A stretch of DNA of 64,000 nt from a virus, in the IMG/VR virus record IMGVR_UViG_3300045988_180644. One strand, written 5' to 3'. Positions 3,458 through 46,395 of the stretch are shown here, one piece after another. Position 1 is the stretch's first letter, and each line of letters opens with the position of its first letter. The notes below the pieces were generated by a model. That model was not told where the DNA came from, did no database searches, and was given only the letters and a program-made list of their open reading frames with translations. A program made the translations under genes and the position numbers.

Positions 3458-3715
3458 TTACATAGATTCGTGGAATGTACGAGAAATAACATCATCTTGT
3501 TGTTCTTTTGTTAATTTAACAAAGTTAACAGCATATCCAGAAACACGAATAGTTAATTGAGGATATTTTTCAGGATGTTTTTGAGCATCAATTAATGTAT
3601 CTCTGTTTAAAACATTAACATTTAAATGATGTCCTCCTTTTGTAGCATAAGCATCTAACATTCCAACTAAATTTTCAACTTGTTGTTCACTTGCAAGCAT
3701 ATTAAGCACCTCCAT
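3458..3715 (-). CDS. grcA: autonomous glycyl radical cofactor (GrcA/YfiD-like, PFL C-terminal glycyl-radical domain)
   Basis: [55 protein letters not shown] is near-identical to GrcA/pyruvate formate-lyase C-terminus, including the RVSGY glycyl radical motif; no PFL N-terminal body upstream. Confidence 0.85.
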
Positions 3716-3771
3716 AGATTTTACTATTGTAGTATATCATATACTACAAAGAAAGAAGATTGATATGCTCA

Positions 3772-4443
3772 TCAATCTTCTCGTATAGCTTTCTCAGTTT
3801 CAATATCTTCCAAAATCCTTTCCACAATCTTTTCAGCTACTTTCTCAGGTTCTTGGTCTCCATCTATAGTTTCTCTAATCTTCTTACCATCAACATCAGT
3901 AAAATAAAGAGCATCGTAACTCTTCTGAATTTCCCTATGGAATGAGATATCCATCTCATCGAACTTGTTAGTATTACGGTGGTTTTTGGCGATTCTTTCA
4001 AGTCCAACTGACACATCAGAGAGCTGAAGATAAAAGGTTTTAGAAAGTTCTGGTGGGAAGATGAATCCAAACAAATCCTTCATAACTTCTTCAACCCACT
4101 CTCCTTTTGCTATTGAATATCTATATCCCTGATAGACAAGCGTACTATCCACATATCTATCACAAAGCACAATATAGCCTTTTTCAAGATAAGGTTTGAT
4201 AGATTTTTGATAGTTTTCATTTCTTATAGATAACATCAACAATAATTCCGTCGTTTTATCTATATCGCTATATTGGGGATTGAATATGATATTTCTGATA
4301 TCTTCACAGACTTCAAGCCCTCCCGGTTCACGGATGATGACGGATGGTATGTTGAGGATGTCTAGGTGTTGTTTAACAAGCTGGATAGCTGTACTTTTCC
4401 CACATCCTTCTGTTCCTTCTAATGCGTAAATTCTTCCTTTCAT
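3772..4443 (-). CDS. tmk: thymidylate kinase
   Basis: P-loop YALEGTEGCGKST, DR(Y) motif; start moved to internal ATG (MKGRIYALEG) with GGAGG RBS; tracker start at 4482 lies inside leader cassette. Confidence 0.85.
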   Translation of the reverse strand: MKGRIYALEGTEGCGKSTAIQLVKQHLDILNIPSVIIREPGGLEVCEDIRNIIFNPQYSDIDKTTELLLMLSIRNENYQKSIKPYLEKGYIVLCDRYVDSTLVYQGYRYSIAKGEWVEEVMKDLFGFIFPPELSKTFYLQLSDVSVGLERIAKNHRNTNKFDEMDISFHREIQKSYDALYFTDVDGKKIRETIDGDQEPEKVAEKIVERILEDIETEKAIRED

Positions 4444-4456
4444 TTGTTTACCTCCT

Positions 4457-4522
4457 AACAAAAAAGACGTGGACTTACCCACATCTCAATTCGTATATTT
4501 ATCTATTACTATTTTATCATAT
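4457..4522 (-). promoter_or_regulatory. leader cassette b (before tmk)
   Basis: TATGATAAAATAGTAATAGATAAATATACGAATTGAG + hairpin ATGTGGG/CCACGTCT + T6. Confidence 0.6.
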
Positions 4523-8412: not shown

Positions 8413-9051
8413 TTAATTCTCATTTGGTATAACGATAGATTGAATATTTCCTCCTACAACTCTAAATCTTTCGTCATATAGTTGATTTTCATAGTCAATT
8501 TCCTTTTTTACAGATTCCTTACATTTCTTTAAACCTTCTTTTAATCCTATAAACATATCATTGTACTCAAAATATTCTCTGGCATGATATTTATGTTCCT
8601 CTTCTCCCAGAAAAATAATATCTAACTCAAAAGGTTTTAAATTGTTTATGTAATGACCTCTGGCATGGAGAATATCTATGACAACAACATAATTATCTAT
8701 AACAAAAACTGTTGTATTATCCTTTTCTTCTCTATCACAAGTTATTTGCAACTTTTCAATATATTTTTCGACTATTTCTGACAACTTTTCAATATTGTTT
8801 ACATCCTTAAATAATCCTTTTATATAATCCCATATATCATAAAGCTGGTTATTATCATCATAGATTTGGTTAATTCCTGTACTAGCCACAACAAGCTTAT
8901 CATTAATTTTATATATCTTTTGGTAATTCCCATCTTTCAGTTCTCTGTTTGAGTATGTGCTATAAGAATCGGAGCATATAATAATTCCATTTTTATTTTT
9001 CAATATAACCATATAAGACATAAAATTTCTTCTCCTTTTTACTTTTTTCAT
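8413..9051 (-). CDS. HslV/proteasome-beta-like Ntn hydrolase paralog A (Ser instead of Thr at the nucleophile position)
   Basis: MSYMVILKNKNGIIICSDSYS...KLVVASTG aligns by eye to HslV N-terminus TTIVSVRRNGHVVIAGDG...KVIAGFAG; paralogous to 11803..12399; alternative start at 9021 (MSYM). Confidence 0.55.
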   Translation of the reverse strand: MKKVKRRRNFMSYMVILKNKNGIIICSDSYSTYSNRELKDGNYQKIYKINDKLVVASTGINQIYDDNNQLYDIWDYIKGLFKDVNNIEKLSEIVEKYIEKLQITCDREEKDNTTVFVIDNYVVVIDILHARGHYINNLKPFELDIIFLGEEEHKYHAREYFEYNDMFIGLKEGLKKCKESVKKEIDYENQLYDERFRVVGGNIQSIVIPNEN

Positions 9052-11560: not shown

Positions 11561-11727
11561 TTTCGTTTTCCTCCTTCAAAAATCTCATACAATCCTCATA
11601 TTCATCTTTTATAAAATTTTGTAATTCTTTGTATTTCTCTTTTAATTCCTTGATTGATTTACATTTAGCAAATTCTTCATAAATCCATATTTTCGTCTCC
11701 TCATACATTTTTTTACTCCTTTCTACG

Positions 11728-11790
11728 AAAAAAAGAGAGACACATTTGTCTCTCTCATCGTTTAATATTTACATATTCATTATAGCATAA
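11728..11790 (-). promoter_or_regulatory. leader cassette d (before small ORF + 10919..11560)
   Basis: TTATGCTATAATGAATATGTAAATATTAAACGATGAG + AGAGACA/TGTCTCT + T7; duplicated with cassette e. Confidence 0.6.
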
Positions 11791-11802
11791 GACAGGGTAC
11801 TG

Positions 11803-12399
11803 TTAGTCAAAAGGTATAACTAAACACTGCACTTTTCCACCTATTGTTCTTTGACCTTCTATATGCAAAGCGTTTTCTGTCATGATGGCATATTCTACTG
11901 ACTCAATGCATCTCTTTTGGGCTTCCTTTAACGATACATTTATTTCTGTATTTCTAAATTGCATAAGCCCATTGACAGCTATAAGTTCATCTCCAGAACA
12001 AAAAATATCGACATCTCCTTTCCTTTTAACGGTTATTGCTGTTGTCTTTGAATGAATAATATCTATAACATATAAAGTATCTTTATAGACAATAATCAAA
12101 CGAATATCCTGTACATATCTATCACAAAATCTTTTAATATAAGATATATATCTGTTGATTTGTTCTTCAATACTATCAAAATTCATGAAATATTCTTTAT
12201 AAGTTTCATTGATATCAATCGCTTTCCCTGTATACTCATCAATAAATCCATTCAATCCAGTGCTTGCAATAACAACATCACCAATCTGATGAATTTTTTT
12301 ATAATTTGAATCTTTAAGTGTCCTGTCTCCATAACAGCTATATGAATCAGAAGCAATGACAATTCCTTCTTTTGTCATATAAGTAATCATGTATGACAT
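11803..12399 (-). CDS. HslV/proteasome-beta-like Ntn hydrolase paralog B (Ser at the nucleophile position)
   Basis: MSYMITYMTKEGIVIASDSYSCYGDRTLKDSNYKKIHQIGDVVIASTG matches HslV N-terminal pattern (x.VVIAxD...K.N.KK...D.VIA..G); RBS AAAGGAG. Confidence 0.55.
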   Translation of the reverse strand: MSYMITYMTKEGIVIASDSYSCYGDRTLKDSNYKKIHQIGDVVIASTGLNGFIDEYTGKAIDINETYKEYFMNFDSIEEQINRYISYIKRFCDRYVQDIRLIIVYKDTLYVIDIIHSKTTAITVKRKGDVDIFCSGDELIAVNGLMQFRNTEINVSLKEAQKRCIESVEYAIMTENALHIEGQRTIGGKVQCLVIPFD

Positions 12400-12529
12400 A
12401 ACATTTCTCCTTTCCTGTTTTTTTTTCTATGTATAACATTAAACAATTCCTCCATGAATAAACTACTCTTATTGTAACACACCAATCATTTCTATTTCAC
12501 TTTATCATGAAGGAATTCATTCTTTAGCA

Positions 12530-13351
12530 TTAATTCCAGTTGACTCCAATATGGCCGTCTGGATGGATAATAACATTTGAATATCCGTCCTCATAATCGT
12601 TATGAATTTGCTGATACATATCTCCTAAAGTGATACGAGCATGTTTCCCATTGTAATTGAATGTGGTATAAACAAAGAAATCTCCTACACGGAATGTATG
12701 CAAGTCAATTTCGTCATTTTCCTGCAATTCATCCAAGATATTGATGTCATAGTCATATTTTTCAAGACTGCTTAAAAACCGAAAAGAAAACGACTGTGCG
12801 TTTGTATTATCCATGTAATCTTTTAAGTGCTTTAAGTTCATATCTTTATCTTGGACAATGGTTTGAACGGTACAATCTGGGAAATCTTCAGGATTTGGCT
12901 TTACGTAATCATTCACTGAAAGGTTGATATGACCCAAACCATTTAATTCTTTGCTGTATCCTGACGTATTAATACTTAAGAAGATATTATCGCTGTATTC
13001 TTTATAGATATCAGATAATTCCTTTACGTATTCAGGATATAATCCTGGCTCTCCACCTGTAATTGTCAATCTCGCTGCAGGATGTTCACGTAATACTTTT
13101 CTAAGAGCTTCCTTTTGTTTTTCAATATCGATTTGCCCTTTCATAGGATTCTTTCTTTCAATACAGAACGGACAATGATAAGGACATTCCTGCGTCATGA
13201 TAATCTGAACATTAATACGATAATACAATGGACGACCTAAAGAAGTCCTTTCATGACGTGTTTCTAATCTATACTTTAAATCTTCTTTCATCTGATTTCT
13301 AATCCACTCATAATTATCAATATGTGGGATAAAGTTCATTTTTCTAGTCAT
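12530..13351 (-). CDS. radical SAM enzyme (family unresolved; activase-like)
   Basis: CPYHCPFC (CxxxCxxC) cluster, LTITGGEP and INTSG motifs; start set to ATG (MTRKMNF) with AGGAG RBS. Confidence 0.75.
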   Translation of the reverse strand: MTRKMNFIPHIDNYEWIRNQMKEDLKYRLETRHERTSLGRPLYYRINVQIIMTQECPYHCPFCIERKNPMKGQIDIEKQKEALRKVLREHPAARLTITGGEPGLYPEYVKELSDIYKEYSDNIFLSINTSGYSKELNGLGHINLSVNDYVKPNPEDFPDCTVQTIVQDKDMNLKHLKDYMDNTNAQSFSFRFLSSLEKYDYDINILDELQENDEIDLHTFRVGDFFVYTTFNYNGKHARITLGDMYQQIHNDYEDGYSNVIIHPDGHIGVNWN

Positions 13352-13383
13352 AATATTCACTCCTAATAAAAAAGCTATAACGA

Positions 13384-13428
13384 TTTAAAAATTTTTCTCG
13401 TTATAGCATGCTCTCTTTTATGTTTCCT
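13384..13428 (-). terminator. hairpin + U-tract between 430-aa gene and radical SAM gene
   Basis: TGCTATAACGA-loop-TCGTTATAGC followed by TTTTTT then AGGAG RBS. Confidence 0.5.
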
Positions 13429-14720
13429 TACTTAGATTCGTCATAGCCAACAACAAAATGATTAGTCTTTGTTACTGTTGTGTATCCTTCTTTAATATCT
13501 AATGTAAACATCACTTTACATGGCAATCCAGCAGTTGCATGTACACCAAATTTATTTGCATTGAGCCAGCCTTTTCCTTTAAAAGGAAATGATGTTTCTT
13601 CAATGAATTTTCTTGGTGTCGTATACCTTCTTCTAGAGAAATTAAAATCACAATATGAAGTTTTTAGCTGGTCTTTGGCGAGGTTTTCTAAGAATTCATC
13701 AAGATTTCCTGATTTGTCAATGATATCCCTTATTTTCTTAGTGATTTTTACATAATGATAGTATTGGATAGGATTGTTGTCAGTATATTCTAAAGCATGT
13801 TGCCAGATTCTATTATTTTCATAAGACACAGCCAGTCTTCCTAAATATAAAAATTCTGCACCATTTTTTTCTTTGTAGATAGCCCCTACATTTAAATCCT
13901 CCTGCTTCAAATATCTTGTTTTCTTTTTGATATCCTGAATATTTAAATCTTTATCTAGTAAAATGTTAGCTTTTTTGACTCCCATGATTAAAGCAATAGC
14001 TAAACGTGCTCTATGTTTATTAACAATTTCAGACATATCATATTCATCTCTGAATTCTACCGTTTCATCCGGTACAATGCATAATGCTATTCTATACCCA
14101 CATTCATAGTCTGTTAATCCGTTTTCAAAAATATATATTCTTCTATTTGCCTGAAATGTTCCGTCCTTTTTCAGTGGAATCAAATCAAAAATATCAGGTA
14201 ACTGCTCCTTATTCATAATCATATGAGCTATATCAATCATTTGCTTTATCTTTTGATAATATTTTTCACCCGTTAAACTTGACTCTGGAATCTTGCCTTT
14301 ACCATATTTAGCCAAATTTTTTTTAGCTTCATTTAAATAATAGTCTAGATTATATTCATCAAGAAATATTGATGCATTTGGACCATAAATTTCTTTTACA
14401 GTTTTAGGCGGATTTAAACAAATCTGTAACAGTTGCTTTTCATCCAAAAACTCATGTTTTAATTTACCAGTTGATGCTTCAAAAGATGAACCTTCAAATT
14501 CTGCTCTAATTTTAAATATCTCTAAAATCACATCTTGTCCATTTCTTGTTTTGACATATACATATGAGCGAGTGCGTGAGCAATTGTGCTTATTGAAAAA
14601 ATTAAGAATATCGCTTTCTGTTGTTGTTTGTGTAACTTCATAATAAATCCCGTATTTCTTTGCCTGTGTTTCAGTTATAGGACTAATATCTTCTTTTTTT
14701 AAAGCGAAAAGTTTTGCCAT
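13428..14720 (-). CDS. hypothetical protein, long paralog (430 aa)
   Basis: shares LPDIFDLIPLKKDGTFQANRRIYIFENG and EHRARLAIALI...IQDIKKKTRYLKQEDL blocks with 14880..15872. Confidence 0.65.
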   Translation of the reverse strand: MAKLFALKKEDISPITETQAKKYGIYYEVTQTTTESDILNFFNKHNCSRTRSYVYVKTRNGQDVILEIFKIRAEFEGSSFEASTGKLKHEFLDEKQLLQICLNPPKTVKEIYGPNASIFLDEYNLDYYLNEAKKNLAKYGKGKIPESSLTGEKYYQKIKQMIDIAHMIMNKEQLPDIFDLIPLKKDGTFQANRRIYIFENGLTDYECGYRIALCIVPDETVEFRDEYDMSEIVNKHRARLAIALIMGVKKANILLDKDLNIQDIKKKTRYLKQEDLNVGAIYKEKNGAEFLYLGRLAVSYENNRIWQHALEYTDNNPIQYYHYVKITKKIRDIIDKSGNLDEFLENLAKDQLKTSYCDFNFSRRRYTTPRKFIEETSFPFKGKGWLNANKFGVHATAGLPCKVMFTLDIKEGYTTVTKTNHFVVGYDESK

Positions 14721-14796
14721 TTTGTTATCCTCCTTATTGAATTTATTTTGTTTTGAAATATAGTTTATTTTCTTCTGTTTTAATCTCCTTTCTACG

Positions 14797-14859
14797 AAAA
14801 AAAAGAGAGACGAATTTGCCTCTCATATCGTTTATATTTACATATTTATTATAGCATAG
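14797..14859 (-). promoter_or_regulatory. leader cassette e (before 13428..14720)
   Basis: near-duplicate of cassette d incl. CGTAGAAAGGAG; stem weakened (GAGAG/CTCTC). Confidence 0.55.
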
Positions 14860-14879
14860 AAATTCATAAATAAAACACA

Positions 14880-15872
14880 TTATTCCGTGTCGTCATATTC
14901 AACATAAACATCATATTGTGATACAACTCCTGTATATTCATCTTTTAAATCCATTGAAAACATCGGAAATTCCGTTTGTCCTGGTGTTGCATTTGGTCCA
15001 TCGATATTGACCTTTACCCATCCTTTAGGACATGCATTTTCAACTTCATCAACAAATTTTCTTAGACTAGTTCGACTGCGTGATGAAAACCCTAACTCAT
15101 CTGTGTTATCTGTTTTTAATTTCACATGAGCCCATTTTTCTAGAAATTCATCAAGTGAATCACAACCATCAAGTATATCCCTCACTTTTTTAGTTACTCT
15201 TAGATATTCACAACCATCTATATGTTTGCATTTAGTTGTTAGGATAGTACGTGGAACATCTCTTAGAACAATACTAATGCCTCCTAAAAACAGGTACTCC
15301 GTTCCAGATTTTTCTTTGTAGATTCTCCCTGGCTTTAAGTCTGATTGCTTGATATACGTAGACCTCGTTTTGATATCCTGTATTTTAAGGCTTCTATTAA
15401 GAAGTGGATAGAGTTTTCTTACACCTGAAACAATGGTTATGGCTAAACGGGCACGATGTTCATCAACTTTTTCATTCATATCCATAAATTCATACCATGG
15501 ATTAATACCATAAGGAACAATAACTAATGCGATTCTCCTTCCTGTTATATATTCTCCAGAACTATCTGTCTCACAGTATGAAATTCCATTATCATAAATA
15601 TAAATACGTCTAGCCTTTTGAAATGTACCGTCTTTTTTCAATGGAATCAAATCAAAAAGATTAGGTACTTTTTCCTGATTCATAATCATGTTTGCTATTT
15701 TTACTAATTCGTAAATTTTACGATAATAATCTTCACCAGTTATATTGGTATCGGGTAATTTACTTTTTCCACAGACGTCTTTTATTTTTTTAGCATGTTC
15801 TAAATAATGATTGAAATTCTCTTCATCATAAAATATTGATAAACCTGCACCATAGATTTCCTTTTTTGCCAT
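14880..15872 (-). CDS. hypothetical protein, short paralog (330 aa) of 13428..14720
   Basis: aligns with residues ~100-430 of neighbour; VPNLFDLIPLKKDGTFQKARRIYIYDNG. Confidence 0.65.
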   Translation of the reverse strand: MAKKEIYGAGLSIFYDEENFNHYLEHAKKIKDVCGKSKLPDTNITGEDYYRKIYELVKIANMIMNQEKVPNLFDLIPLKKDGTFQKARRIYIYDNGISYCETDSSGEYITGRRIALVIVPYGINPWYEFMDMNEKVDEHRARLAITIVSGVRKLYPLLNRSLKIQDIKTRSTYIKQSDLKPGRIYKEKSGTEYLFLGGISIVLRDVPRTILTTKCKHIDGCEYLRVTKKVRDILDGCDSLDEFLEKWAHVKLKTDNTDELGFSSRSRTSLRKFVDEVENACPKGWVKVNIDGPNATPGQTEFPMFSMDLKDEYTGVVSQYDVYVEYDDTE

Positions 15873-15890
15873 AAGATTTATTTCCTCCTA

Positions 15891-16499
15891 CTAAAATCCA
15901 TATAAAATCACATCTTCATTTTCCCAATCCGTATGGTTATATAAATTAATAATCTGAAGAATTGTATATTCCGTAGATATGTTGATATTGTATGGAATTT
16001 CTAATTTATCTTTGTTTGTTCGTTTTGAAAATGACTTAAAAGCATCCATATTAAGACTATCATCTTGTTTCCATAAATTTGCTTTTCGATGGAAATATTC
16101 CTGTGCAAATATAGGCCCACATTCATCTTCAAAATCTTTTAACATGTCAGTATAATATTTATACATGCTTTTATAGATTGCATCGAGATACAACAGAATC
16201 ATTTCCTTAGTCAGTTTTACAATTCTTTCACCATCAATATCCCTTTCACCTTCATAAGGAATATTGACTAAATGACTCTGTTCTTTAGAAAGATATGATT
16301 TCCCCTGTTTACGTATTGTTTCAGCGTCATCATCACTTCCTAAAGGCATCACTTCTTGAAATCCTAAATGCTTGACAACATCGTATTGTGTAAGTTCATC
16401 TGGATTCTCTTTAAACACATCAATGAGTTCTTTTAGCTTTGCATCAATGTCTTGAGAGCATAGCTTTTTTCTTTTACAAATATACAAACGATAGCTCAA
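15891..16499 (-). CDS. hypothetical protein
   Basis: TTG start (LSYRLYICKRKK) 8 nt after GGAGG; tracker start 16541 overlaps leader cassette. Confidence 0.55.
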   Translation of the reverse strand: MSYRLYICKRKKLCSQDIDAKLKELIDVFKENPDELTQYDVVKHLGFQEVMPLGSDDDAETIRKQGKSYLSKEQSHLVNIPYEGERDIDGERIVKLTKEMILLYLDAIYKSMYKYYTDMLKDFEDECGPIFAQEYFHRKANLWKQDDSLNMDAFKSFSKRTNKDKLEIPYNINISTEYTILQIINLYNHTDWENEDVILYGF

Positions 16500-16518
16500 T
16501 TTATTTCCTCCTTTCAAA

Positions 16519-16578
16519 CAAAAAAGACATGCATAAAGCACGTCTCGTCTCGTTTAATATTTACATTTCTATTATACC
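16519..16578 (-). promoter_or_regulatory. leader cassette f (before 15891..16499)
   Basis: TGGTATAATAGAAATGTAAATATTAAACGAGACGAG + ACGTGC/GCATGTCT + T6. Confidence 0.6.
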
Positions 16579-16596
16579 ACATTATACTCTGCAATC

Positions 16597-16830
16597 TTAC
16601 AACAATCCTAGCATTTGTGCCATGGCTCTACCAAAGATTGATTTCATCTCTTCATTGTTCATTATGCTGGATTTTTTAGCGACATATAATCCACCCCATA
16701 GCATCGCAGCTTTCTGTTCAAGAGACAAATCTTTTTTCTCTGATAGGATTAGGTTTTCCAAATCATAATATGCTACATCTGATGACATGTCCTTGATGTG
16801 TTTTTCTTTTTCCATAAGCTTATCCTCCAT
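16597..16830 (-). CDS. hypothetical protein
   Basis: 77 aa ORF. Confidence 0.5.
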   Translation of the reverse strand: MEDKLMEKEKHIKDMSSDVAYYDLENLILSEKKDLSLEQKAAMLWGGLYVAKKSSIMNNEEMKSIFGRAMAQMLGLL

Positions 16831-20289: not shown

Positions 20290-21528
20290 TTAAGCTATGT
20301 TGACCATATATTCATCGTTCTTGTTGTCTTTTCCTAACAAAGAAGTCACATAATCACTAGCAACCTCCAGATTAAACCTTTCCATATCCTCACATGCACA
20401 CCATGCCATTGTATAGTCGATGATGTCTAGTGCCTTGTCTGGAAAGTATCTATCTGGAATAGTCTTCGCCATAGAAATGACTTTTTCTATATCCTCTAAT
20501 TCAATGCTAACATGATGATACTTACAATATCCCTGCAACTTCTTTTGAATCATTGCAGGAATTTGAGAAGGTTTTGGCTCATGAATATGAATTCTTCTAA
20601 AACGTCTTGCTAAAGCCTTGTTTACCGCTAGATATCTGTCATATTCTTCTTCAGTCGTAGCAATGATGAACTTGTGTTTCCCTTGTGTCAAAATAGGTTT
20701 TAATATTTCTGACAAAGATGTACTCCCTTCACTGCTTCCTGCCTGTGTTAAAGAGTGGGCTTCATCAATGAATACGATAAGTTTTTTACCTTTGACTGCT
20801 TTCAAAAATCTTTGAATCTTCTCTTCAAATTCCCCTCTATATTTAGTACCAGCCACAGTTGCTGTCACATCTAGATTGACAATTTGGTATCCTTTGAGTT
20901 TTTGGGGAGGATTGTATCGAATCAGTCTAGCTAATTCTTCTACAATGGCACTCTTCCCTACCCCAGCCTTACCAAGAAGAGCAATATTAGCCTTATCCTT
21001 GCATGATAAACCAATAATCATCTGTTTAACCTCTTTGTCTCTGCCAAGAATTGTCTTGGTTTTGGCTGGTTTGATGATTTCCGTGAATGATTCACAACCT
21101 TTTATAGCCTTTAATGAACTTTCTTTTTCTCTTAGTTTGTCAACAACTTCATCAATGTCGACTCCCTCTTCCTTAAGGATTTCTACAGAGACAGATTCTG
21201 ACTCTAATAATGCAACGCACAATTCATCAATGTTTACTTTAGCCTTTTTCTTGTTTTCTAAGGCATTATTAAGAATCTTTTTAAAAACATCGCCATATTC
21301 TAAATAGAACGGCTGTACTTCCTTTTCTGGGAAGAAATATTCTACCCTTTTAGCAAAAGATGTATAATCAACTCCATACTTTTTTAGTTCCTTTGTTAAT
21401 AAAACATCCATTTGTAATAGAGCTAATAGTAAATGACATGTGTCAACTCTTTCGTGTCCTTTATCGAAACAGATAGATTCAGCTGTCACAATTGCTTTTT
21501 GACATTTTTCATCAAATTTATCTAACAT
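20290..21528 (-). CDS. ClpA/ClpC-like AAA+ ATPase, truncated: Clp N-domain repeats + D1 module only
   Basis: two Clp_N-like repeats (LLLALL...), Walker A GKAGVGKS, LIVFIDEAHSL Walker B, ARRF sensor; no D2 domain; 412 aa. Confidence 0.75.
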   Translation of the reverse strand: MLDKFDEKCQKAIVTAESICFDKGHERVDTCHLLLALLQMDVLLTKELKKYGVDYTSFAKRVEYFFPEKEVQPFYLEYGDVFKKILNNALENKKKAKVNIDELCVALLESESVSVEILKEEGVDIDEVVDKLREKESSLKAIKGCESFTEIIKPAKTKTILGRDKEVKQMIIGLSCKDKANIALLGKAGVGKSAIVEELARLIRYNPPQKLKGYQIVNLDVTATVAGTKYRGEFEEKIQRFLKAVKGKKLIVFIDEAHSLTQAGSSEGSTSLSEILKPILTQGKHKFIIATTEEEYDRYLAVNKALARRFRRIHIHEPKPSQIPAMIQKKLQGYCKYHHVSIELEDIEKVISMAKTIPDRYFPDKALDIIDYTMAWCACEDMERFNLEVASDYVTSLLGKDNKNDEYMVNIA

Positions 21529-21547
21529 AGTATTCCTCCTTTTGATG

Positions 21548-21610
21548 CAAAAAAGACGTGCTATGCACGTCTTCGTTCGTTTATTTATCTACGTTAATAT
21601 TATATCATAG
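21548..21610 (-). promoter_or_regulatory. leader cassette h (before ClpC-like gene)
   Basis: CTATGATATAAT (perfect extended -10) ...AAACGAACGA + AGACGTGC/GCACGTCT + T6. Confidence 0.65.
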
Positions 21611-21615
21611 AAAAT

Positions 21616-22068
21616 TTAATTCAACACTGTATCGTCTTTAAACATATTCAATGCATTAATGACAATTTCAAGTGCATTGATATCATTATTCGTTAAAATT
21701 GTCAAAATGCAGTATGTGACTACCATGATATCACACAAGAATACATCTCCTTTATACCCTATATCTCTATATCCTGTCTCTTCATTGTTTTGAATGCTTA
21801 TTTCCTCACGGATATATATTTCTCTTTCTTCCTCATGTTTCTGTGCTTCCTGAGCAATGAAGTTCTGTGCTTCAACAACATATCTGATAAAAGTTTCTAT
21901 ATCATAGAAGTCATTCATTTCCTCATCATTCATATTATCAATCTCCTGACAGATAATTTCATGTAAATTGACAATAGCCATTAAACATCCTTCCTGCGTT
22001 ATTGTAGGACAGTTGACATCAATGTTTTCCTTATTCAATTGAAACGTTCCTTCAAATTTTACTTCCAT
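21616..22068 (-). CDS. hypothetical acidic protein
   Basis: 150 aa ORF. Confidence 0.55.
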   Translation of the reverse strand: MEVKFEGTFQLNKENIDVNCPTITQEGCLMAIVNLHEIICQEIDNMNDEEMNDFYDIETFIRYVVEAQNFIAQEAQKHEEEREIYIREEISIQNNEETGYRDIGYKGDVFLCDIMVVTYCILTILTNNDINALEIVINALNMFKDDTVLN

Positions 22069-22082
22069 AAGTTCACCTCCAA

Positions 22083-22150
22083 AATAAAAACTGTAATGTT
22101 TCCATTACAGTCCTTCTAAGAAAAGTATATCATAAATCGCTTATATTTTG
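22083..22150 (-). promoter_or_regulatory. same architecture, different sequence: TGATATACT -10, hairpin CTGTAATG/CATTACAG, U-tract, RBS of 21616..22068
   Basis: read on minus strand from 22150 down to 22083. Confidence 0.45.
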
Positions 22151-22182
22151 CGTTATAGAAGATTTTTGATTCATAGGTAATC

Positions 22183-23001
22183 TTATACCACCTTTAACTT
22201 AAAACTTGCTTCAGCCCCAAATAAAGAAGTTCTGATAGTTGTTTCTCCTTTCTTTTTAGGGTTAATCTTTCCACTTTCATTAATACTGGCTATTTCTTCA
22301 TCATCAATAGCATACTTTATATCATCTGTTTTATCACTACCAATTATATGTGGCTTTAATGTTGTTGTCTGATTAAGTCTTAGGGTTAATGTATCATTCT
22401 GAAACCCAAATACGATTTCTGGATTTTGTATAGAAACCTCAATATCCTTAGACACTTTATTTCCTGATTCATCGTTGGCAGTCACTTCTAATTGGTAAGT
22501 TCCTGCTTTTGTCATATCAACGTCACTGTCATCTATTTCTAACTGACACTTTGACAGGTCCTTGACCCCAAAATATTCGTTCCAGTCGATTGTCTGTCCA
22601 ACATAGACATTTAAATCCTTGTATTGAACAATTTCAGGTTTTACTGTATCTTCAACAGAAACTGTAAATGGAAGTTCAATTGTTTCTGAATCGCTTTTGT
22701 ATGTTATCTTGCATTGATATGTTCCTACTGCTGGATAATTCTTACCTTTTTCCATCTCTACATCAGTTTCTAATGTCGAATCAAATAATGGGCTTCCTTG
22801 TTTTTTAGCCTTGGATTTATTGATGTTGACATATTCAGATATAGACGAAGATATATTTGTTCCATACTCTATAGTGAAGTTATCCTGTTTGAGGGATATG
22901 ATAGGGCCTGTTTCATCCAGAATGAATCTTATCAAAAATACAGTGCCAAAACATGCAATCATTATCATAATCGTAAGAATAATTATTTTTCCTTTTTTCA
23001 T
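22183..23001 (-). CDS. membrane-anchored surface protein with Ig-like repeats
   Basis: N-terminal TM/signal (IIILTIMIMIACFGTVFLI); domain paralogous to N-terminus of 23077..24402 (YPAVG...VEDT.KP). Confidence 0.6.
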   Translation of the reverse strand: MKKGKIIILTIMIMIACFGTVFLIRFILDETGPIISLKQDNFTIEYGTNISSSISEYVNINKSKAKKQGSPLFDSTLETDVEMEKGKNYPAVGTYQCKITYKSDSETIELPFTVSVEDTVKPEIVQYKDLNVYVGQTIDWNEYFGVKDLSKCQLEIDDSDVDMTKAGTYQLEVTANDESGNKVSKDIEVSIQNPEIVFGFQNDTLTLRLNQTTTLKPHIIGSDKTDDIKYAIDDEEIASINESGKINPKKKGETTIRTSLFGAEASFKLKVV

Positions 23002-23076
23002 CTCCTTTCCTCCGATTCAAAAGTTCTTGTATCTTTATTATTTTATCACACATATAAAAAAAGAGGCATTTTGCCC

Positions 23077-24402
23077 CTAATATTTCGTAATATTCTTTTC
23101 CAAGTCAATGATAAACACTGTGTTGCTGTCAATAGCCTGCATAACTTTCTTCATCTGAGAAGTCGGAATTGCTACACATCCTCCTGTATAATGGATACTA
23201 TTAGCACAATGCAGGAAAAAAGCAAAGCCTTTTCCTTTTACATTAGATGTATTATAGCTGAAGGCTGCAGCATACTTATATTGAGTAGGATAATCAATTA
23301 AATGCTCATCATTTTTTTTACTGCAAGAATGTTCTGTTACATCCTCATCTACAAATTGATTGTATAATGTTTCTCCACACCAGTAATCATTGTTATCAAT
23401 TCTATGATACGGAAGCTGAGTACCAGGATTTGATGATATTCCCATTAATTTTGTAAAAGTATATTGTCCAATAGGCGTTCTCGTACTGTTTTCACTTCCT
23501 GTTCCTACTCCAGCCTTACCAAAATCAGCTGTTGTCTCTAGAACTTCTTTCCATTTTCCATTCACTTTCTGATAATAAGTAAATGTTCCTTGTCTTGATG
23601 AACTTGATGGAGCTGATGCAATCATAATTTTTGAATAGCTTTTAGCAACATCTAATTTAGAAACCCATAAATCATTTGACGATGCGCTGGATGAACCAGA
23701 TGTTCCAGTTGATGTTCCGGTATTCTTATTTGAAGTGCTTGAAGAATTGCTACTTGCTGTTTTGTTACTCGTAGAACTCCCCTTCTGTGATGAGCTTGAG
23801 TTGTTTGTCTTGTTTGATGATTGACTTGTAGTGCTTCCCTTTGAAGAACTCTTAGAAGTAGTATTCTTTGATGCCGTTATAGCTTTTTCTTTGACTGTCA
23901 AATCAATTTCCTTTTGAGCCTTGTTCTGATATTCATCAGTAGCTGTGACCTTCACCTTATAATTTCCTGATTTTGTATAGTCAATTTGAGCATCTTCTAC
24001 TGTAATGGTTACATCAGATAAATCTGTTGCTGTAAATTTCTTTTTATCAATCTTTTCACCATTATCAACAGTGACCTTTGTTATTCCATCGGTAAAGGTT
24101 GGAGCCTTTGTGTCTTCAACTTTTATTGTCACTTCCTGATTCGTATTTCCGTGACTAATCTTTAATGTATACTCCCCAACGGCAGGGTATTCTTTACCTT
24201 CTTCATTTTCTGGAATCCCTGTCATTGTTGAATTTTTCATATATTCATCACTGTTTTCTAGATACGTTTTTAAATCCGAAGAAACGATTTCTCCATATTC
24301 TACTGTTAATTCTTTATTCTTTAATTTCATTTGTTCCTGCTGGCATCCACTAATCATTAATGACACTAACAGTACCAAAAAAACTTGTAAACATTTTCTC
24401 AT
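23077..24402 (-). CDS. lipoprotein with Ig-like domains, S/T-rich linker and C-terminal L,D-transpeptidase (YkuD-like) domain
   Basis: lipobox LMISGC; LHCANSIHYTGGCVAIP matches LD-transpeptidase catalytic motif; start moved to ATG (MRKCLQV) with GGAGG RBS. Confidence 0.65.
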   Translation of the reverse strand: MRKCLQVFLVLLVSLMISGCQQEQMKLKNKELTVEYGEIVSSDLKTYLENSDEYMKNSTMTGIPENEEGKEYPAVGEYTLKISHGNTNQEVTIKVEDTKAPTFTDGITKVTVDNGEKIDKKKFTATDLSDVTITVEDAQIDYTKSGNYKVKVTATDEYQNKAQKEIDLTVKEKAITASKNTTSKSSSKGSTTSQSSNKTNNSSSSQKGSSTSNKTASSNSSSTSNKNTGTSTGTSGSSSASSNDLWVSKLDVAKSYSKIMIASAPSSSSRQGTFTYYQKVNGKWKEVLETTADFGKAGVGTGSENSTRTPIGQYTFTKLMGISSNPGTQLPYHRIDNNDYWCGETLYNQFVDEDVTEHSCSKKNDEHLIDYPTQYKYAAAFSYNTSNVKGKGFAFFLHCANSIHYTGGCVAIPTSQMKKVMQAIDSNTVFIIDLEKNITKY

Positions 24403-24417
24403 TTTATTCCTCCTTAC

Positions 24418-24486
24418 AACAAAAAAAAGATGTGTAGCTTTGTACACATCTCCTTCGTATATATTTACATGATTATTTTATCATAA
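24418..24486 (-). promoter_or_regulatory. leader cassette i (before LD-transpeptidase lipoprotein)
   Basis: TATGATAAAATAATCATGTAAATATATACGAAGGAG + ATGTGTACA/TGTACACATCT + T8. Confidence 0.6.
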
Positions 24487-24506
24487 GTTAACATTCTATG
24501 GAAAAT

Positions 24507-26321
24507 CTACGCCTTGTCTACTTCCAATACATTGTATCTTGGTCCAACCCCATTAAAATCAGTATATCCGACTTCAATCAGATAATTGACATTGGCCTTT
24601 TTATCCTTCTTTCTTTGATATGTTTCGGCACGGATTTCTCTAGCTTCATTTTCTGTGACATTATCTCTTTCCATGATTCGCTGAACATTATCACTCATTG
24701 TAAATGACTCTTCATTACAAATCGGTTTTACATTTTTTAATCCTCCAAACAACCACAATTCCAAAGCTGGGAAGGATTTCTTTCCATGGTCAAAGACCAT
24801 TTCATATTGCGTCATCTTAGCGTGATTAGACTTGTAATAGAGGTCAATTCTTGATACATTGAAACTCATTTTTGCTATAGGCAAAGGTAATCCATTTCCA
24901 AATGGCTTCAATTTCTTAATCTCTTCTACAAAAGCCAATCTTTCCTTGCGATTATGGATTTGAACATAAGTCTTTTCAATAACCTTACCTTGTTCTTGCT
25001 TTTCCACACTCTCGCAAAACTCTTGTTTAAACTCTTCCAAATTTTCATCCAGCACGGTCAACCCTGCTGCATCGGCATGTCCTCCATATGCATATAACAA
25101 ATGTTTTCTGTCATCAATGTCCTGAAGAGTATCATACAAGTTGATAAGCGAGTTGCCTCTTGCTGAACCTTTCCAGGCTTTTTGACCATCCACCATACAG
25201 TCTGTCATGACTAGAGTTGTCTTATTATTTTCATTCATGTAAGCACCAGCCAAAATCCCAATAATTCCCTCATGGATTCCTTCTTGAGCAATAAAATTGA
25301 CTGATGTTGATTCATCAAGATGGATTCCTTCCATAGTCTGTTTTTTGATGTCCTTTCTTTCTTCATTTAAAAAGACAATAAATGAACAGGCTCTTCTGGC
25401 ATCTTCTTTATTATCAGTTGTTAAGAAATCAACTGCCAACTTAGCATCATGTAAACGTCCAACAGCATTGATGGCCGGCGCAATGGAAAATCCAATGGAC
25501 TGCTCATCAAATGTTTCCTGATTCACTTCCTGATAATCCATAAGCATTTTAAGATGCCAGTCGGGCTCAGTCTGGATAGACTTGATTCCATCCTTTAACC
25601 ATTTTCTATTCTCATTGACCTGAGATAAAGCATCATCTGCTGATGCAATAGGCATGACGTCTGAAACAATGGTCAAAGCTGAAAGCTGTAATAGGTATTT
25701 TCGAAGATTGTCTTTTTTCTTCTTTAACGCCTTGCTATTATCCAATAATAAGCTTGCAACCTTATATGCAACCTGTGCTCCACTGATGTATGGGAATGGA
25801 TATGCTCCAATTTGAGGATGCACGATGAGATTGGCATTTGGCAAGACTGATGATGGTGTATGATGGTCGGTAACGTATACGTACAATCCTTTCTCTCTTG
25901 CATAGTCAATAACCTCATGACAGGCAATTCCATTATCACAGGTTAAGATGGCCTTGATATTATCATCTAAAGCCTTATCTATCATCTCCTTGCATAATCC
26001 ATATCCATTTCTGATACGATGAGGGATATCATAATCCACTCTGGCATGAATGAATGTTAAAGCAAGGTATAAGATAGAAGTTGCTCCTACACCATCCATA
26101 TCATAATCTCCCATAATTCTGATTTTTTCATTGTTTTTGATGTGAGTTTGAAGAGCTTCGCATAACTCTACACAATTATCCAATAACTTTGGCGAATGCA
26201 ACTCACAGGGGTTGTAGAGAGTTTGGATGGATTTTTGGGAGAATCCTAAATGTGTTAACCACTCATCCATCTGCACATTGTCTACAAGTCCGCTTGTTTT
26301 ATCTAATTCCTTCCAGTTCAT
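24507..26321 (-). CDS. recJ: single-stranded-DNA-specific exonuclease RecJ (DHH family)
   Basis: DHH motifs GDYDMDG, TCDNG, VTDHH; 604 aa. Confidence 0.8.
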   Translation of the reverse strand: MNWKELDKTSGLVDNVQMDEWLTHLGFSQKSIQTLYNPCELHSPKLLDNCVELCEALQTHIKNNEKIRIMGDYDMDGVGATSILYLALTFIHARVDYDIPHRIRNGYGLCKEMIDKALDDNIKAILTCDNGIACHEVIDYAREKGLYVYVTDHHTPSSVLPNANLIVHPQIGAYPFPYISGAQVAYKVASLLLDNSKALKKKKDNLRKYLLQLSALTIVSDVMPIASADDALSQVNENRKWLKDGIKSIQTEPDWHLKMLMDYQEVNQETFDEQSIGFSIAPAINAVGRLHDAKLAVDFLTTDNKEDARRACSFIVFLNEERKDIKKQTMEGIHLDESTSVNFIAQEGIHEGIIGILAGAYMNENNKTTLVMTDCMVDGQKAWKGSARGNSLINLYDTLQDIDDRKHLLYAYGGHADAAGLTVLDENLEEFKQEFCESVEKQEQGKVIEKTYVQIHNRKERLAFVEEIKKLKPFGNGLPLPIAKMSFNVSRIDLYYKSNHAKMTQYEMVFDHGKKSFPALELWLFGGLKNVKPICNEESFTMSDNVQRIMERDNVTENEAREIRAETYQRKKDKKANVNYLIEVGYTDFNGVGPRYNVLEVDKA

Positions 26322-26830
26322 CTTGACTCCTCCTTTATGATTCTTTTAAGTTCTGAAGCGAATATCCAGTCAGGAAGTTCATAGTGGACAGTATGTCCTT
26401 TCCATGTTCCCTTTGTAAAGTTAATATTGTTGACAAGTTTAATTCCTGTCATGTTATGTAAAGCAACATCTTCTAGATTCTTTGTATAGTCATCAAGCAA
26501 GTATAACTCATGAGAATTATCACTTGAATTCATGTAATGGCTTTTTTGCTTGCCATAGGGAACATAGATTCTATCTTTTTTATCAATAAATGGTAGATAT
26601 TTATCTACAAGCTGATTCTTTTCTTCTAGAATATAATCTCTGTCCAGACATGATGACAATATCTTGAGTTTCACATCTGGATTCTCTTTGTGGAAAGTCT
26701 TAATCCCTCTAATGACATTATCGAATGGATAAAGTGATGAGAAAAAGCCTCTTTCCAGTATTTCATCCAGTGATGCATCCTTTTTAAATTCAAAGCATGT
26801 TCCATCTAAATCTATATATAATGTTTTCAT
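26318..26830 (-). CDS. 5'(3')-deoxyribonucleotidase (HAD superfamily, NT5C-like)
   Basis: LYIDLDGT HAD motif I; start set to ATG (MKTLYIDLDG) with AAAGGAGAG RBS. Confidence 0.65.
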   Translation of the reverse strand: MKTLYIDLDGTCFEFKKDASLDEILERGFFSSLYPFDNVIRGIKTFHKENPDVKLKILSSCLDRDYILEEKNQLVDKYLPFIDKKDRIYVPYGKQKSHYMNSSDNSHELYLLDDYTKNLEDVALHNMTGIKLVNNINFTKGTWKGHTVHYELPDWIFASELKRIIKEESR

Positions 26831-26929
26831 ATCTTCTCTCCTTTCTTTAGTGACATTATTTTCATTTATACATGACATTTTTTTCTTTTCGTCTTGTATC
26901 TGATGACAACATTTTCTTTTGGTCTTGTA

Positions 26930-29176
26930 TTAGATATCATATTGCTCCAGCAGTTCAGTCAGCATGGTATTTCTCTTTCTTTCCTTGTTGTCCAATGCAT
27001 GTTGCATCATATTCTTTTGACCAACAATAAAAAGTTCGTTTTTGTTTCTTGTCATTCCTGTATAGACAAGACGTTTCTTTATCATGAATCGGTGTAATCC
27101 ATCCATAAGCATAATAGAGCACTTGTATTCAGACCCTTGCGTTTTATGAATGGTCATAGCATAAGCCAAGCGCAATTCATCAAACTCTTCTCTTAGGTAT
27201 GTATGTTCCATTCCATCATAATCCACAACGATTCTATCTTCATTGCTGTTCTTTGTATCTGAGTAAATACAATCAATCACATTTCCGACCATACCATTGA
27301 ACAGATTAAATTCCGGATGGTTCTTCAACTGAAGAACTCTATCCCCTACCCTAATGATTTTCTTGAATCCAACTTTCATTTCAGGCTTGTCTTCATCATA
27401 GGGATTTAATATAGCCTGTATTTCTACGTTCATGACATCACAGCCGATATCTCCCTTATTCTGTGGCTCCAACAAGCAGACATTTTCAACACCCCACTGT
27501 GTCACTTTCTTGAGATAAAGCTGTAACACTTCATCTTTAGTTGCCTGAATATCACTTTCTGGTGTTTCAATGAATGCAAAATCTTGAGCATCTGTTAAAT
27601 CTGGTACTCTTTCCTGAAAGTTGAAATCAAGAGCTCTAGGCAAAGTTGTACTACCATCAACAGCTCGATAGATTTTTTCAAGGATTGTTTTTGGAATATA
27701 ATCTACATCAATCAAATCCTCCAAGACTTGTCCTGGGTCAACAGATGGCAACTGGTCCTTATCACCTGTCAAGATGACAACAGTATCTGAAGAGATGGCT
27801 TTCATCAGTCGTTCAAACAAAACAATATCAACCATTGAAAACTCGTCGACAATCAGCAAATCAACCTGCAAAGGATTATGTTCATTATATTTCCATCCCG
27901 TTTCAGGATTATATCCAAGTAATCTATGGATTGTGCTTGCTTCCATTCCAGTGGCTTCTGACATTCTTGTAGCAGCCTTTCCTGCTAGCGCACATAACTT
28001 AATGTTGACTCGTTTCTTGCTGTTTTGGAATATATAGCAGATACAATCAATCAATGTTGTCTTTCCACTTCCTGGTGGACCAGAAATAATGGAAAACTGA
28101 TTAATAGATGAACGCTTGATTCCTTCTCTTTGCTTGTCAGCCAACTGAAAACCTTTCATTGCCTCATATTGTGCAATCATTTCATCTACTTTGCTCTCTG
28201 CAACTATTCTGTTTTTGCGTACTGCTGTAGCAACCATTTGAGCAACATTGTTTTCTGCTTTGTAGATATATGGCAGGTAAATGACAATATCTGTTTTCTT
28301 TAGTCTCTTATATATCTTTCTAGAATCCAGCATTTTAATGATTGCCTCTCTGATAAGCGATTCATCTACATTTAACCCTCTCTCTGCCTGAACTATCAAT
28401 TCTTCTAGAATCATGTAACAGTCGCCAGTATATAGTTTTGCTTTTAGCAATGATATGATATATGCCTCTATTCTTCTTAAATCCTCTTTTGAATAGTTAT
28501 AATATCTTAAACCAATCCCATCAACGGTTTCAAAAGAAAATCCATCAACATTAATTAATTGATATGGATTATCATCTATGATACTTGAGGCATTTGTTCC
28601 CCAGAGTTTTAAGAGTTTGAGTGCTGAGTTTAATGAAACACCAAAACGAACAAATTTATAATAAAGAGAATCTATCGCCTGGTATTTTTTCTGTTTTTCA
28701 AGAGCTTTGTCAATAGTTTTCTGTCCAATCCCACTTACATCCTTCATATCCACTCTAAACTCCTCAATGTTTTGTTTGAAGGTGTTGATGGCATTTAGTG
28801 GGTTGCTATCATAATACTCAATCAGTCTTTCTGCTCTTTTAGGGCCGAATAGAAATGCCAGCATTGACGTTGCTCCTACGATGTCATCATCAGCTCTGAT
28901 AGCATAAGTGAAATGAAATTCATCTTTCCCGTTCTTTCCTTTCTTCCATTCTCCAATAAATTCCAGATAATCACCTACAGAATGATGATTTGTTGTACCG
29001 ACAGCTTTGAACTTCTTGTTTGTCAATGGGTCTCTAACGTTTAAAACACACCATAATAGTTCATCTGCTTCTAGAAATCCTTTAGGTACTATCACATAAT
29101 CAATCCATCCTCTGATTCTTTCTAAATTTTCCTGACTCTCCATCTTCTTTTTTATAATTCTTTCTTTGAGTCCCAT
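26930..29176 (-). CDS. recD2: RecD2-like ATP-dependent DNA helicase
   Basis: GPPGSGKTT Walker A, LIVDEFSMVD, ILTGDKDQLPSV, TIHKTQGSEY motifs; 748 aa. Confidence 0.8.
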   Translation of the reverse strand: MGLKERIIKKKMESQENLERIRGWIDYVIVPKGFLEADELLWCVLNVRDPLTNKKFKAVGTTNHHSVGDYLEFIGEWKKGKNGKDEFHFTYAIRADDDIVGATSMLAFLFGPKRAERLIEYYDSNPLNAINTFKQNIEEFRVDMKDVSGIGQKTIDKALEKQKKYQAIDSLYYKFVRFGVSLNSALKLLKLWGTNASSIIDDNPYQLINVDGFSFETVDGIGLRYYNYSKEDLRRIEAYIISLLKAKLYTGDCYMILEELIVQAERGLNVDESLIREAIIKMLDSRKIYKRLKKTDIVIYLPYIYKAENNVAQMVATAVRKNRIVAESKVDEMIAQYEAMKGFQLADKQREGIKRSSINQFSIISGPPGSGKTTLIDCICYIFQNSKKRVNIKLCALAGKAATRMSEATGMEASTIHRLLGYNPETGWKYNEHNPLQVDLLIVDEFSMVDIVLFERLMKAISSDTVVILTGDKDQLPSVDPGQVLEDLIDVDYIPKTILEKIYRAVDGSTTLPRALDFNFQERVPDLTDAQDFAFIETPESDIQATKDEVLQLYLKKVTQWGVENVCLLEPQNKGDIGCDVMNVEIQAILNPYDEDKPEMKVGFKKIIRVGDRVLQLKNHPEFNLFNGMVGNVIDCIYSDTKNSNEDRIVVDYDGMEHTYLREEFDELRLAYAMTIHKTQGSEYKCSIMLMDGLHRFMIKKRLVYTGMTRNKNELFIVGQKNMMQHALDNKERKRNTMLTELLEQYDI

Positions 29177-31014: not shown

Positions 31015-31017
31015 TTT

Positions 31018-32160: not shown

Positions 32161-32308
32161 CCTGATTCTCCTTTCATATTCACACTTTATTATATTAAAA
32201 TTATATATTTTTTTCAACTTGTATTTACATTCCCTTGAATTTGTGCGTATCGTTTTCGCGGCCCCAAAATCTTTTGATTTTGCCAGGTTCACTTTTCATT
32301 TTAGATAA

Positions 32309-45820: not shown

Positions 45821-45903
45821 GTCCTCGTGATGGAACAGGTAGACATGCATGGCTTAGACCCATGTGCTTATGCGTAAGGGTTCGAATCCCTTCGAGGACA
45901 CCA
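45821..45903 (+). tRNA. tRNA-Leu (anticodon TAG), class II long variable arm
   Basis: hand-folded cloverleaf: acceptor GTCCTCG/CGAGGAC, anticodon stem CATGG/CCATG loop CTTAGAC, GGTTCGAATCC T-arm, CCA encoded. Confidence 0.7.
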
Positions 45904-45947
45904 ATATCACTCCAATGCTTGTAAAGAGTGAATATATGAAATTATAT

Positions 45948-46020
45948 GAACATCTAGCATAATGGAAATGCGTAGGGTTCAGCGCCCTTCATGATACTGG
46001 TTCAAGTCCAGTGGTGTTCA
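45948..46020 (+). tRNA. atypical tRNA-like gene (anticodon loop TTCAGCG; no encoded CCA)
   Basis: acceptor GAACATC/GATGTTC, D-arm TAGCATAATGGAAATGC, T-arm ACTGG-TTCAAGT-CCAGT; paralog of 46396..46468. Confidence 0.45.
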
Positions 46021-46070
46021 AATGCCAGATAAGAAATAAAGCTAAAACAGGGATAATCATATCCCTACAT

Positions 46071-46208
46071 GGTCCTTTAGCTCAGTAGGTAGAGTAGATG
46101 ACTGTTATACATCACTACATCAAATAAAGAAAGTTAAGTACGTGATGTATGTCAACACTTTGTGTTGATAAATCATGGTTACAGGTTCGAATCCTGTAGG
46201 GACCACCA
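46071..46208 (+). tRNA. tRNA-Asn-like (GTT) gene carrying ~62-nt insertion in variable region
   Basis: acceptor GGTCCTT/AGGGACC+A+CCA pairs across 138 nt; D-arm TAGCTCAGTAGGTAGAG; anticodon loop CTGTTAT; insert forms 9-bp hairpin ATACATCAC/GTGATGTAT. Confidence 0.45.
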
Positions 46209-46236
46209 AATATACATTTTTTGTGACAAACAATAT

Positions 46237-46313: not shown

Positions 46314-46314
46314 T

Positions 46315-46390: not shown

Positions 46391-46395
46391 AAAAT

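Follow-up and report, generated by a model that had tools for sequence, protein, structure and literature searches.

Radical S-adenosylmethionine (SAM) enzymes are the anaerobic world's route to difficult chemistry. To our knowledge, few of those encoded by phages have known roles, namely QueE, NrdG and the thymidine-hypermodification enzymes. Among the closest described systems are the glycyl-radical activases, in which the cluster motif lies near the N-terminus and is preceded by a glycine-rich GxGxR. The small glycyl-radical protein GrcA is activated by the host pyruvate formate-lyase (PFL) activase. The locus considered here belongs to the IMG/VR virus record IMGVR_UViG_3300045988_180644, from which a stretch of 64,000 nucleotides (the window) was analysed. 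Between positions 12,530 and 15,872, a gene for a 273-aa radical SAM protein lies downstream of two genes encoding paralogous proteins of 330 and 430 aa (paralogs A and B), and the window also carries a grcA-like gene. Our reading, to which we assign a probability of roughly 60%, is that this interval is an early or accessory gene stretch of a large low-GC phage of gut Clostridia, in which the three genes are neighbours by lineage history rather than parts of a functional module, and the radical SAM gene stands alone.

The protein shares several features with the activases PFL-AE (TIGR02493) and NrdG (TIGR02491, TIGR02495): it is small, has a single cluster and a partial barrel, and occurs in a phage with a grcA-like gene. 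It differs from them in lacking the activase N-terminal motif, in falling below the hidden Markov model (HMM) cut-offs, and in showing no co-occurrence with GrcA in other phages. Unlike viperin and its prokaryotic counterparts (pVips), the phage family scores about 150 bits below the cut-off, carries a family-specific N-terminal helix and C-terminal cap, and is located in early or replication operons. Unlike MoaA (GTP 3',8-cyclase) and AbmM (the albomycin thiosugar radical SAM enzyme, 8wm2), it has no second Fe-S cluster.

The radical SAM protein and its family

The 273-aa protein is a true radical SAM enzyme with a single [4Fe-4S]/SAM site. The motifs picked out from the sequence alone (CPYHCPFC, GGEP and NTSG) are all present, within ECPYHCPFC (residues 56-63), TGGEPG (98-103) and INTSGY (127-132). 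The Pfam model Radical_SAM (PF04055) matches at 42.6 bits against a cut-off of 29.5 and is the only Pfam or NCBIfam model that passes. In the family alignment, the CX3CX2C cluster cysteines C56, C60 and C63 are invariant and GGEP occupies positions 99-102. Cys160 is the sole further conserved cysteine (39 of 42 sequences), and no second Fe-S cluster or auxiliary cysteine was found in the alignment of 42 family sequences.

An AlphaFold2 model built from the family alignment (predicted local distance difference test 91.1, predicted template modelling score 0.87) consists of an N-terminal helix (14-31), six beta-strands alternating with helices, and a C-terminal beta-sheet (216-270). The predicted core is arranged as in a partial TIM barrel, in line with the partial or full (beta/alpha) barrel of the radical SAM superfamily. 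Two regions are family-specific, namely a helical extension conserved at the N-terminus (residues 1-45) and a cap formed by the C-terminal sheet.

Curated models place the protein outside the activase, viperin, QueE, MoaA and SPASM-maturase families. The sequence-only reading had proposed an HMM classification among PFL-AE/NrdG, viperin and QueE, and the protein fits none of these, with all scores far below cut-off. Sub-cut-off NCBIfam matches are confined to the SAM-binding N-terminal third. Beyond this third, PHROGs give nothing except a marginal match to phrog_17662 (E 1e-4, function not annotated).

The viperin models illustrate this pattern. The model viperin_w_prok (NF038283) aligns with residues 52-123 at 31.9 bits against a cut-off of 180, TIGR04278 with residues 22-120 at 16.0 against 450, and the PADLOC pVip matches (PDLC02903/4) cover residues 51-133 only. 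A viperin-like nucleotide dehydratase would produce chain-terminating 3'-deoxy-3',4'-didehydro-nucleotides, either as a prophage's defence against other phages or for host transcription shut-off. We consider this role unlikely: the alignment does not extend beyond the generic SAM-binding third, and there is no similarity over the viperin C-terminal nucleotide-binding region. In addition, the gene shares its orientation with replication genes in lytic early operons and does not occupy the accessory position typical of genes expressed in the lysogen.

The activase models score 19-29 bits and lie 100-480 bits below their cut-offs: NrdG2 (TIGR02495) at 28.7 against 131.15, PFL-AE (TIGR02493) at 21.2 against 231.75, BssD at 20.6 against 496, and NrdG (TIGR02491) at 19.3 against 126.1. 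The cluster motif begins at residue 56, behind the conserved 45-aa extension, and the sequence ahead of it, ending in ...SLGRPLYYRINVQIIMTQE, contains no GxGxR. The activase-like reading made from the sequence alone, by which the protein would install a radical on the phage GrcA-like protein or on host PFL or NrdD, is highly improbable on these scores and on the distribution of grcA described below. The counter-case named with that reading was an ordinary nucleotide-metabolism pair, a confident NrdG with an nrdD gene elsewhere in the element. What was found is different, since the two NrdG models reach 19-29 bits against 126-131 and the window has no large glycyl-radical enzyme, the grcA-like gene being its sole glycyl-radical open reading frame (ORF).

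Other radical SAM functions were considered and rejected. QueE of the Clostridial type (TIGR03963) scores 16.9 bits against 260.1, and no 7-deazaguanine pathway gene (FolE, QueD, QueC, DpdA) occurs among the annotated recurrent neighbours, of which a subset was scanned. The MoaA models score 21-26 bits against 231-325 (TIGR02666, 26.3 against 284), and the protein has one further conserved cysteine where three are needed for a second C-terminal [4Fe-4S] cluster. Maturases of ribosomally synthesised peptides with post-translational modifications (RiPPs), whether with SPASM/twitch domains or a RiPP recognition element (RRE), and HXS-type enzymes fit no better. Peptide maturase models score 16-19 bits against 340-525 and HxsC 27.7 against 268, auxiliary cysteines are absent, the N-terminal extension is a single helix, and adjacent small ORFs are not conserved. 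Finally, a thymidine-hypermodification enzyme was set aside, as no 5-hydroxymethyldeoxyuridine pathway genes occur among the annotated genes of the window or the carrier loci. The earlier suggestion of a nucleoside-modifying enzyme or something else therefore survives in its general form, whereas viperin and QueE as its specific candidates do not, by curated models.

A homology search with the protein returned 351 matches, and the best 120 of these 351 clusters are 266-278 aa long and at least 59% identical to it. Individual clusters are large, with 2445 member sequences in P0112 and 812 in P0065. No family cluster carries a functional name, the sole label given being 'hypothetical protein'. 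Identity shows a sharp gap between the family (at least 59-60%) and the next radical SAM proteins (at most 35%). In one-genome-per-species data, ten loci reach at least 60% identity. Eight belong to Lachnospiraceae, Eubacteriales or other Clostridia, and the remaining two lie outside Clostridia, in metagenome-assembled genomes of Prevotella and Odoribacter. IMG/VR contributed 106 viral loci. Members are plentiful in phage metagenomes from the human gut and from other animal-associated sources, above all in phages and prophages of gut Clostridia. By tblastn, the family is absent from 50,697 deposited phage records, where three weak, generic matches of about 30% identity occur in huge uncultured phages. 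A blastn search of window positions 12000-16600 against the same records gave no match, and a literature search found no report of a phage radical SAM enzyme of this kind. These sequences appear to define a large, tightly conserved, uncharacterised and phage-restricted radical SAM family, on which purifying selection acts strongly even though the phages that carry it differ widely.

One member comes from a cultured isolate, Lachnospira intestinalis CLA-AA-H89B (contig 1, 300067-312873; L093), in which the family gene occurs with RecT, SSB, phrog_19106 and a G39P-like loader. Because RecT, SSB and the G39P-like loader surround the radical SAM gene, this locus is read as a prophage. Together with natural sister phages that carry or lack the gene, the prophage copy offers an experimental handle on the family. 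Assignment of the family's substrate might uncover a new modification of DNA or nucleotides, or a new mechanism of counter-defence, where phage and host are strictly anaerobic.

Gene neighbourhoods and linkage to the paralogs and grcA

ORFs were called in all loci and then clustered, and the paralog family was traced by HMM; 80 of the 106 IMG/VR viral loci were kept. The sequence-only reading had implied a functional unit of the radical SAM gene with its two upstream neighbours and had pointed to gene-neighbourhood conservation as a check. This linkage proves not to be general. Across 79 loci, the radical SAM gene has 22 upstream and 26 downstream neighbour families in 39 pairs, none of them a paralog family. 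Among the loci compared, the paralog-family HMM matches nothing beyond the window and three contigs closely related to it (L006, L007 and L008), and no such gene lies near the radical SAM gene in the other family loci (approximately 80-90, with up to 6-8 kb of flank). Conversely, distant members of the paralog family are single genes in the accessory regions of other phages and have no radical SAM gene nearby.

The commonest carrier context is a temperate-phage replication module comprising RecT, a metallo-beta-lactamase-fold protein, SSB, phrog_19106, the radical SAM protein, a DnaD-like loader and a G39P-like loader. The commonest upstream neighbour, phrog_19106, has no assigned function, and its candidate identity as a GIY-YIG homing nuclease was not confirmed by Pfam. 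In a lineage of about 50% GC, the radical SAM gene overlaps the start of an HU-like gene. Elsewhere it is followed on its 3' side by a CxxCxxCC protein or is surrounded by small ORFs without assigned function.

Comparison of closely related contigs adds a natural deletion. L006 retains both paralogs, a thymidylate kinase gene and grcA, and lacks the segment corresponding to window positions 13275..11621, so that about 25 codons of the radical SAM gene are left. GrcA relatives occur in at least 62 IMG/VR contigs, many of them 100-400 kb long. Among the matches listed, no contig is common to these 62 and to the 80 viral contigs with a radical SAM gene, and in about 90 other family loci the 6 kb around the radical SAM gene contain nothing GrcA-like. 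The retention of grcA in L006 after loss of the radical SAM gene argues further against an activase. As a separate observation, the grcA-like gene, which encodes a glycyl-radical 'spare part', is paired with a thymidylate kinase gene in both the window (3458-4482, minus strand) and L006 (19888-20873). L197 also carries a thymidylate kinase gene, and its contig ends there.

On a rival reading, the radical SAM gene would form an operon module with its neighbours, in which the enzyme would modify one or both paralog proteins, possibly together with the downstream HslV-like peptidase, as a protein-maturation system. In favour of this, the window shares the order paralog, paralog, radical SAM with L008, L197 and L198, the genes are all co-oriented, and leakiness of the terminator would fit a tuned stoichiometry. 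Yet the family occurs in about 90 loci without a paralog-family gene, the paralogs remain intact in L006 after the radical SAM gene was lost, and the HslV-like gene is absent from L008 and L197. The protein itself has a single N-terminal helix before the core and one further conserved cysteine, with no RRE or SPASM domain apparent. Such a module is therefore very unlikely.

The evidence favours a stand-alone gene, independently mobile and dispensable, that is apparently gained and lost apart from its neighbours. This conclusion follows from the variable neighbours, the loss of the gene alone in L006, the distant paralogs that occur without it and the lack of co-occurrence with GrcA.

Proposed substrate and mechanism

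As a tentative mechanism, the enzyme would cleave SAM reductively, using host flavodoxin or ferredoxin as electron donor. The resulting 5'-deoxyadenosyl radical would then, during early infection, attack a small substrate that is probably DNA-related or similar to a nucleotide. A hydrogen atom might be given back by the extra conserved Cys160, and the caps at both termini hint that the active site is enclosed. A nucleotide or DNA substrate is suggested by three observations: the commonest lineage places the gene within a recombination and replication module, the gene of another lineage overlaps an HU-like gene, and the nearest, still distant, sequence relatives (AbmM, prokaryotic viperins and MoaA) act on nucleotides. 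It is likewise possible, with no greater confidence, that a stand-alone, horizontally mobile phage gene catalyses an undescribed oxygen-independent radical reaction on DNA, on a component of the nucleotide pool or on an immune signalling nucleotide. If so, it could represent an anaerobic route to base modification, for example, or a new counter-defence chemistry.

In its narrower form, the counter-defence proposal holds that the enzyme alters or destroys a molecule of host immunity, for example a signalling nucleotide, or uses up the SAM on which restriction or BREX-type systems depend. A patchy, transfer-like distribution combined with very high sequence conservation across phages of 30-50% GC would suit this role, as would early expression. 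The gene has, moreover, been gained and lost between sister phages that also differ in their restriction-modification cassettes. The protein nonetheless has no similarity to any known anti-defence protein, and the literature searches brought up no radical SAM enzyme of that type. We consider this proposal unlikely.

Several points weigh against the overall reading of a stand-alone gene acting on nucleotides or DNA. The flank examined was 6 kb in most loci (up to 6-8 kb in the search for paralogs), and a handful of phage lineages accounts for the bulk of the 80 viral loci. Conservation of the order paralog, paralog, radical SAM in four related contigs is compatible with a lineage-specific functional link. 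The similarities of the protein in structure and sequence are generic and superfamily-level, so the nucleotide or DNA assignment draws on context and a weak ranking. In addition, the family has an isoelectric point of about 6, which does not suggest a nucleic-acid-binding protein, and temperate-phage replication modules also collect unrelated accessory genes.

Paralogs, regulatory elements and other features of the window

The window features that the sequence-only reading had described, a radical SAM gene downstream of two paralogs, a grcA-like gene and a hairpin with a U-tract, were all recovered on the minus strand, which carries the genes throughout 10-33 kb of the window. Their coordinates are collected in Table 1.

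Table 1. Coordinates of the genes and regulatory elements of the locus in the window.
Feature	Coordinates	Strand	Basis or remark
202-aa ORF	15891..16499 (TTG 16499)	-	Cassette ribosome-binding site and orthologues of 202-205 aa; mechanically listed as 15891-16541 from GTG, 216 aa
Paralog A, 330 aa	14880..15872	-	Phage-only family; start 18 nt past the stop of the upstream 202-aa ORF
Gap between paralogs A and B			159 nt
Intergenic regulatory cassette between paralogs	14785..14856	-	Terminator scan, motif listing, copy alignment, folds
Paralog B, 430 aa	13428..14720	-	Paralog A core with N-terminal extension of about 105 aa
Gap between paralog B and radical SAM gene			76 nt
Terminator-like hairpin and U6	13368..13407	-	Fold; sited between paralog B and radical SAM gene
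Radical SAM gene, 273 aa	12530..13351	-	Motifs, Pfam PF04055
HslV/proteasome-like gene	11803..12399	-	Next gene 3' of radical SAM gene
grcA-like gene	3458..3715	-	Match to Pfam Gly_radical at E 2e-24; 9 kb from radical SAM gene; no other RVSGY-type motif in the window
Cassette -10 boxes	63858, 21607, ~19412, 16579, 14856, 11787, ~2198	-
Cassette -10 boxes	34712, 44680	+

Paralogs A and B are indeed related, with 45% identity over 331 residues (E 3e-90), and appear to be a tandem duplication within a phage-only protein family without a recognisable fold. Orthologues of paralog B (428-435 aa) carry the same N-terminal extension. As anticipated from the sequence alone, neither protein matches a Pfam or NCBIfam family. 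An exhaustive profile search gathered 125 family representatives at 50% identity, the full-length ones being mostly about 300-340 aa, and no Pfam domain was found in 80 members. A scan of viral contigs with the narrow paralog alignment gave no match. PHROG 2475 is the sole library family that matches the paralogs (E 4.6e-5 and 3.7e-4) and 16 of the 80 wider members; the matches are weak and partial (38-99 residues), and this PHROG has no annotated function. A PADLOC match of paralog B to Cas2a was rejected as spurious. Across 80 diverse members, near-invariance is limited to P, K, Y, G, Y, L and K, and the wide alignment contains no conserved Asp, Glu, His, Cys or Ser. This lack of a conserved catalytic-type residue points to a binding or structural role rather than to catalysis. 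The paralogs are most likely non-enzymatic binding or host-takeover proteins.

The hairpin before the radical SAM gene pairs GCUAUAACGA with UCGUUAUAGC at 13407..13374 in a 10-bp stem with a 14-nt loop, followed by U6 at 13373..13368. It folds with a centroid energy of -12.6 kcal/mol (z -2.4), a value that 6 of 200 shuffled sequences equal or better. The structure is kept in three related contigs (L008, L197 and L198) with one compensatory change from A-U to G-C. In L006, where the downstream gene is deleted, it contains one mismatch and one wobble. The ribosome-binding site of the radical SAM gene (AGGAG, 13364..13360) lies right after the hairpin and U6. With a GTG start, the ORF would span 12530..13360; the ATG at 13351, with AGGAG 8 nt upstream, is likelier and gives the 273-aa protein, its homologues measuring 270-278 aa. 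Since only this weaker and different hairpin precedes the gene, read-through expression is plausible, and transcription that continues from paralog B past the hairpin is the probable route in this phage.

A second, composite element separates the two paralogs. It combines an extended -10 box TGCTATAAT (14856..14848), an A-rich leader, a hairpin GAGAGGC/GTCTCTC (14824..14805), U8 and AAAGGAG. The earlier proposal had the three genes co-transcribed and did not mention this element. The promoter-like box and second terminator-like hairpin (14856..14785) split the paralogs and indicate that the three genes do not form one simple transcription unit. With this cassette ahead of it, paralog B is probably transcribed from a promoter of its own.

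At least nine copies of this cassette occur in the window, on both strands. Their consensus comprises TGnTAnAAT as the extended -10 box, some 20 nt of leader (ATGTAAAT..TAAACGA), a GC hairpin of 7-10 bp, U6-8 and an AAAGGAG ribosome-binding site, with a start codon soon after AAAGGAG in most copies. In the nine-copy alignment, the -10 positions are invariant, and the hairpin arms vary in sequence yet stay complementary, that is, they covary. The hairpins fold at -8.8 to -19 kcal/mol. Such cassettes could provide antitermination control of a regulon, 5' mRNA stabilisation or insulation. They resemble the promoter-early stem-loops (PeSLs) of T4-type phages, in which the stem-loop lies upstream of the promoter (PMC4122927, PMC2839356). 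Like PeSLs, the window cassettes are repeated composites, here of a promoter-like box, stem-loop and Shine-Dalgarno sequence, placed before accessory genes in a variable region. They differ in that the hairpin and U-run lie downstream of the predicted -10 box, inside the predicted 5' leader, and indel boundaries do not coincide with the cassettes. The 216-aa version of the ORF upstream of paralog A overlaps a cassette hairpin, and its true start is probably the TTG codon that gives 202 aa. This 202-aa protein has no match in Pfam or PHROGs.

The sister contigs also differ in restriction-modification cassettes located just upstream of shared small early ORFs (L006 3517-5534, L008 1-5560). The L006 cassette encodes a C5-methylase and an NgoBV-type endonuclease, and that of L008 encodes a complete type I HsdM/S/R system. 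L008 additionally carries a group II intron reverse transcriptase/maturase at 14773-16513.

The HslV/proteasome-like gene next to the radical SAM gene has a paralog in the window at 8413-9051 (minus strand). The two match Pfam Proteasome at 2e-4 and 3e-6, respectively, and phrog_1040 ('peptidase HslV family').

An array of 25 tRNAs called by ARAGORN spans 45821-51833 on the plus strand. ARAGORN assigns the tRNA at 47801-47873 as a suppressor with anticodon TTA, which reads UAA. This call is doubtful, since it does not reach the gathering score of the Rfam tRNA model and more ORFs of the window end in TAA (43 of 77) than in any other stop codon; if real, it would be noteworthy. At 46071-46205 (plus strand), an Rfam tRNA match of 51.3 bits spans 135 nt and is not called by ARAGORN; a long insertion or an intron within a tRNA might explain its length.

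The intervals 29992-32292 (minus), 43002-44624 (plus) and 20290-29176 (minus) hold ParA and ParB_N genes and a RepA_N replication initiator. With these go a RecD2-like helicase, a RecJ-like DHH protein, a Clp_N-AAA ATPase, a DNA polymerase exonuclease subunit and a protein with a weak major-tail PHROG match. This gene set may indicate a large phage maintained as a plasmid. The coding strand switches and the GC skew flips at approximately 33-34 kb.

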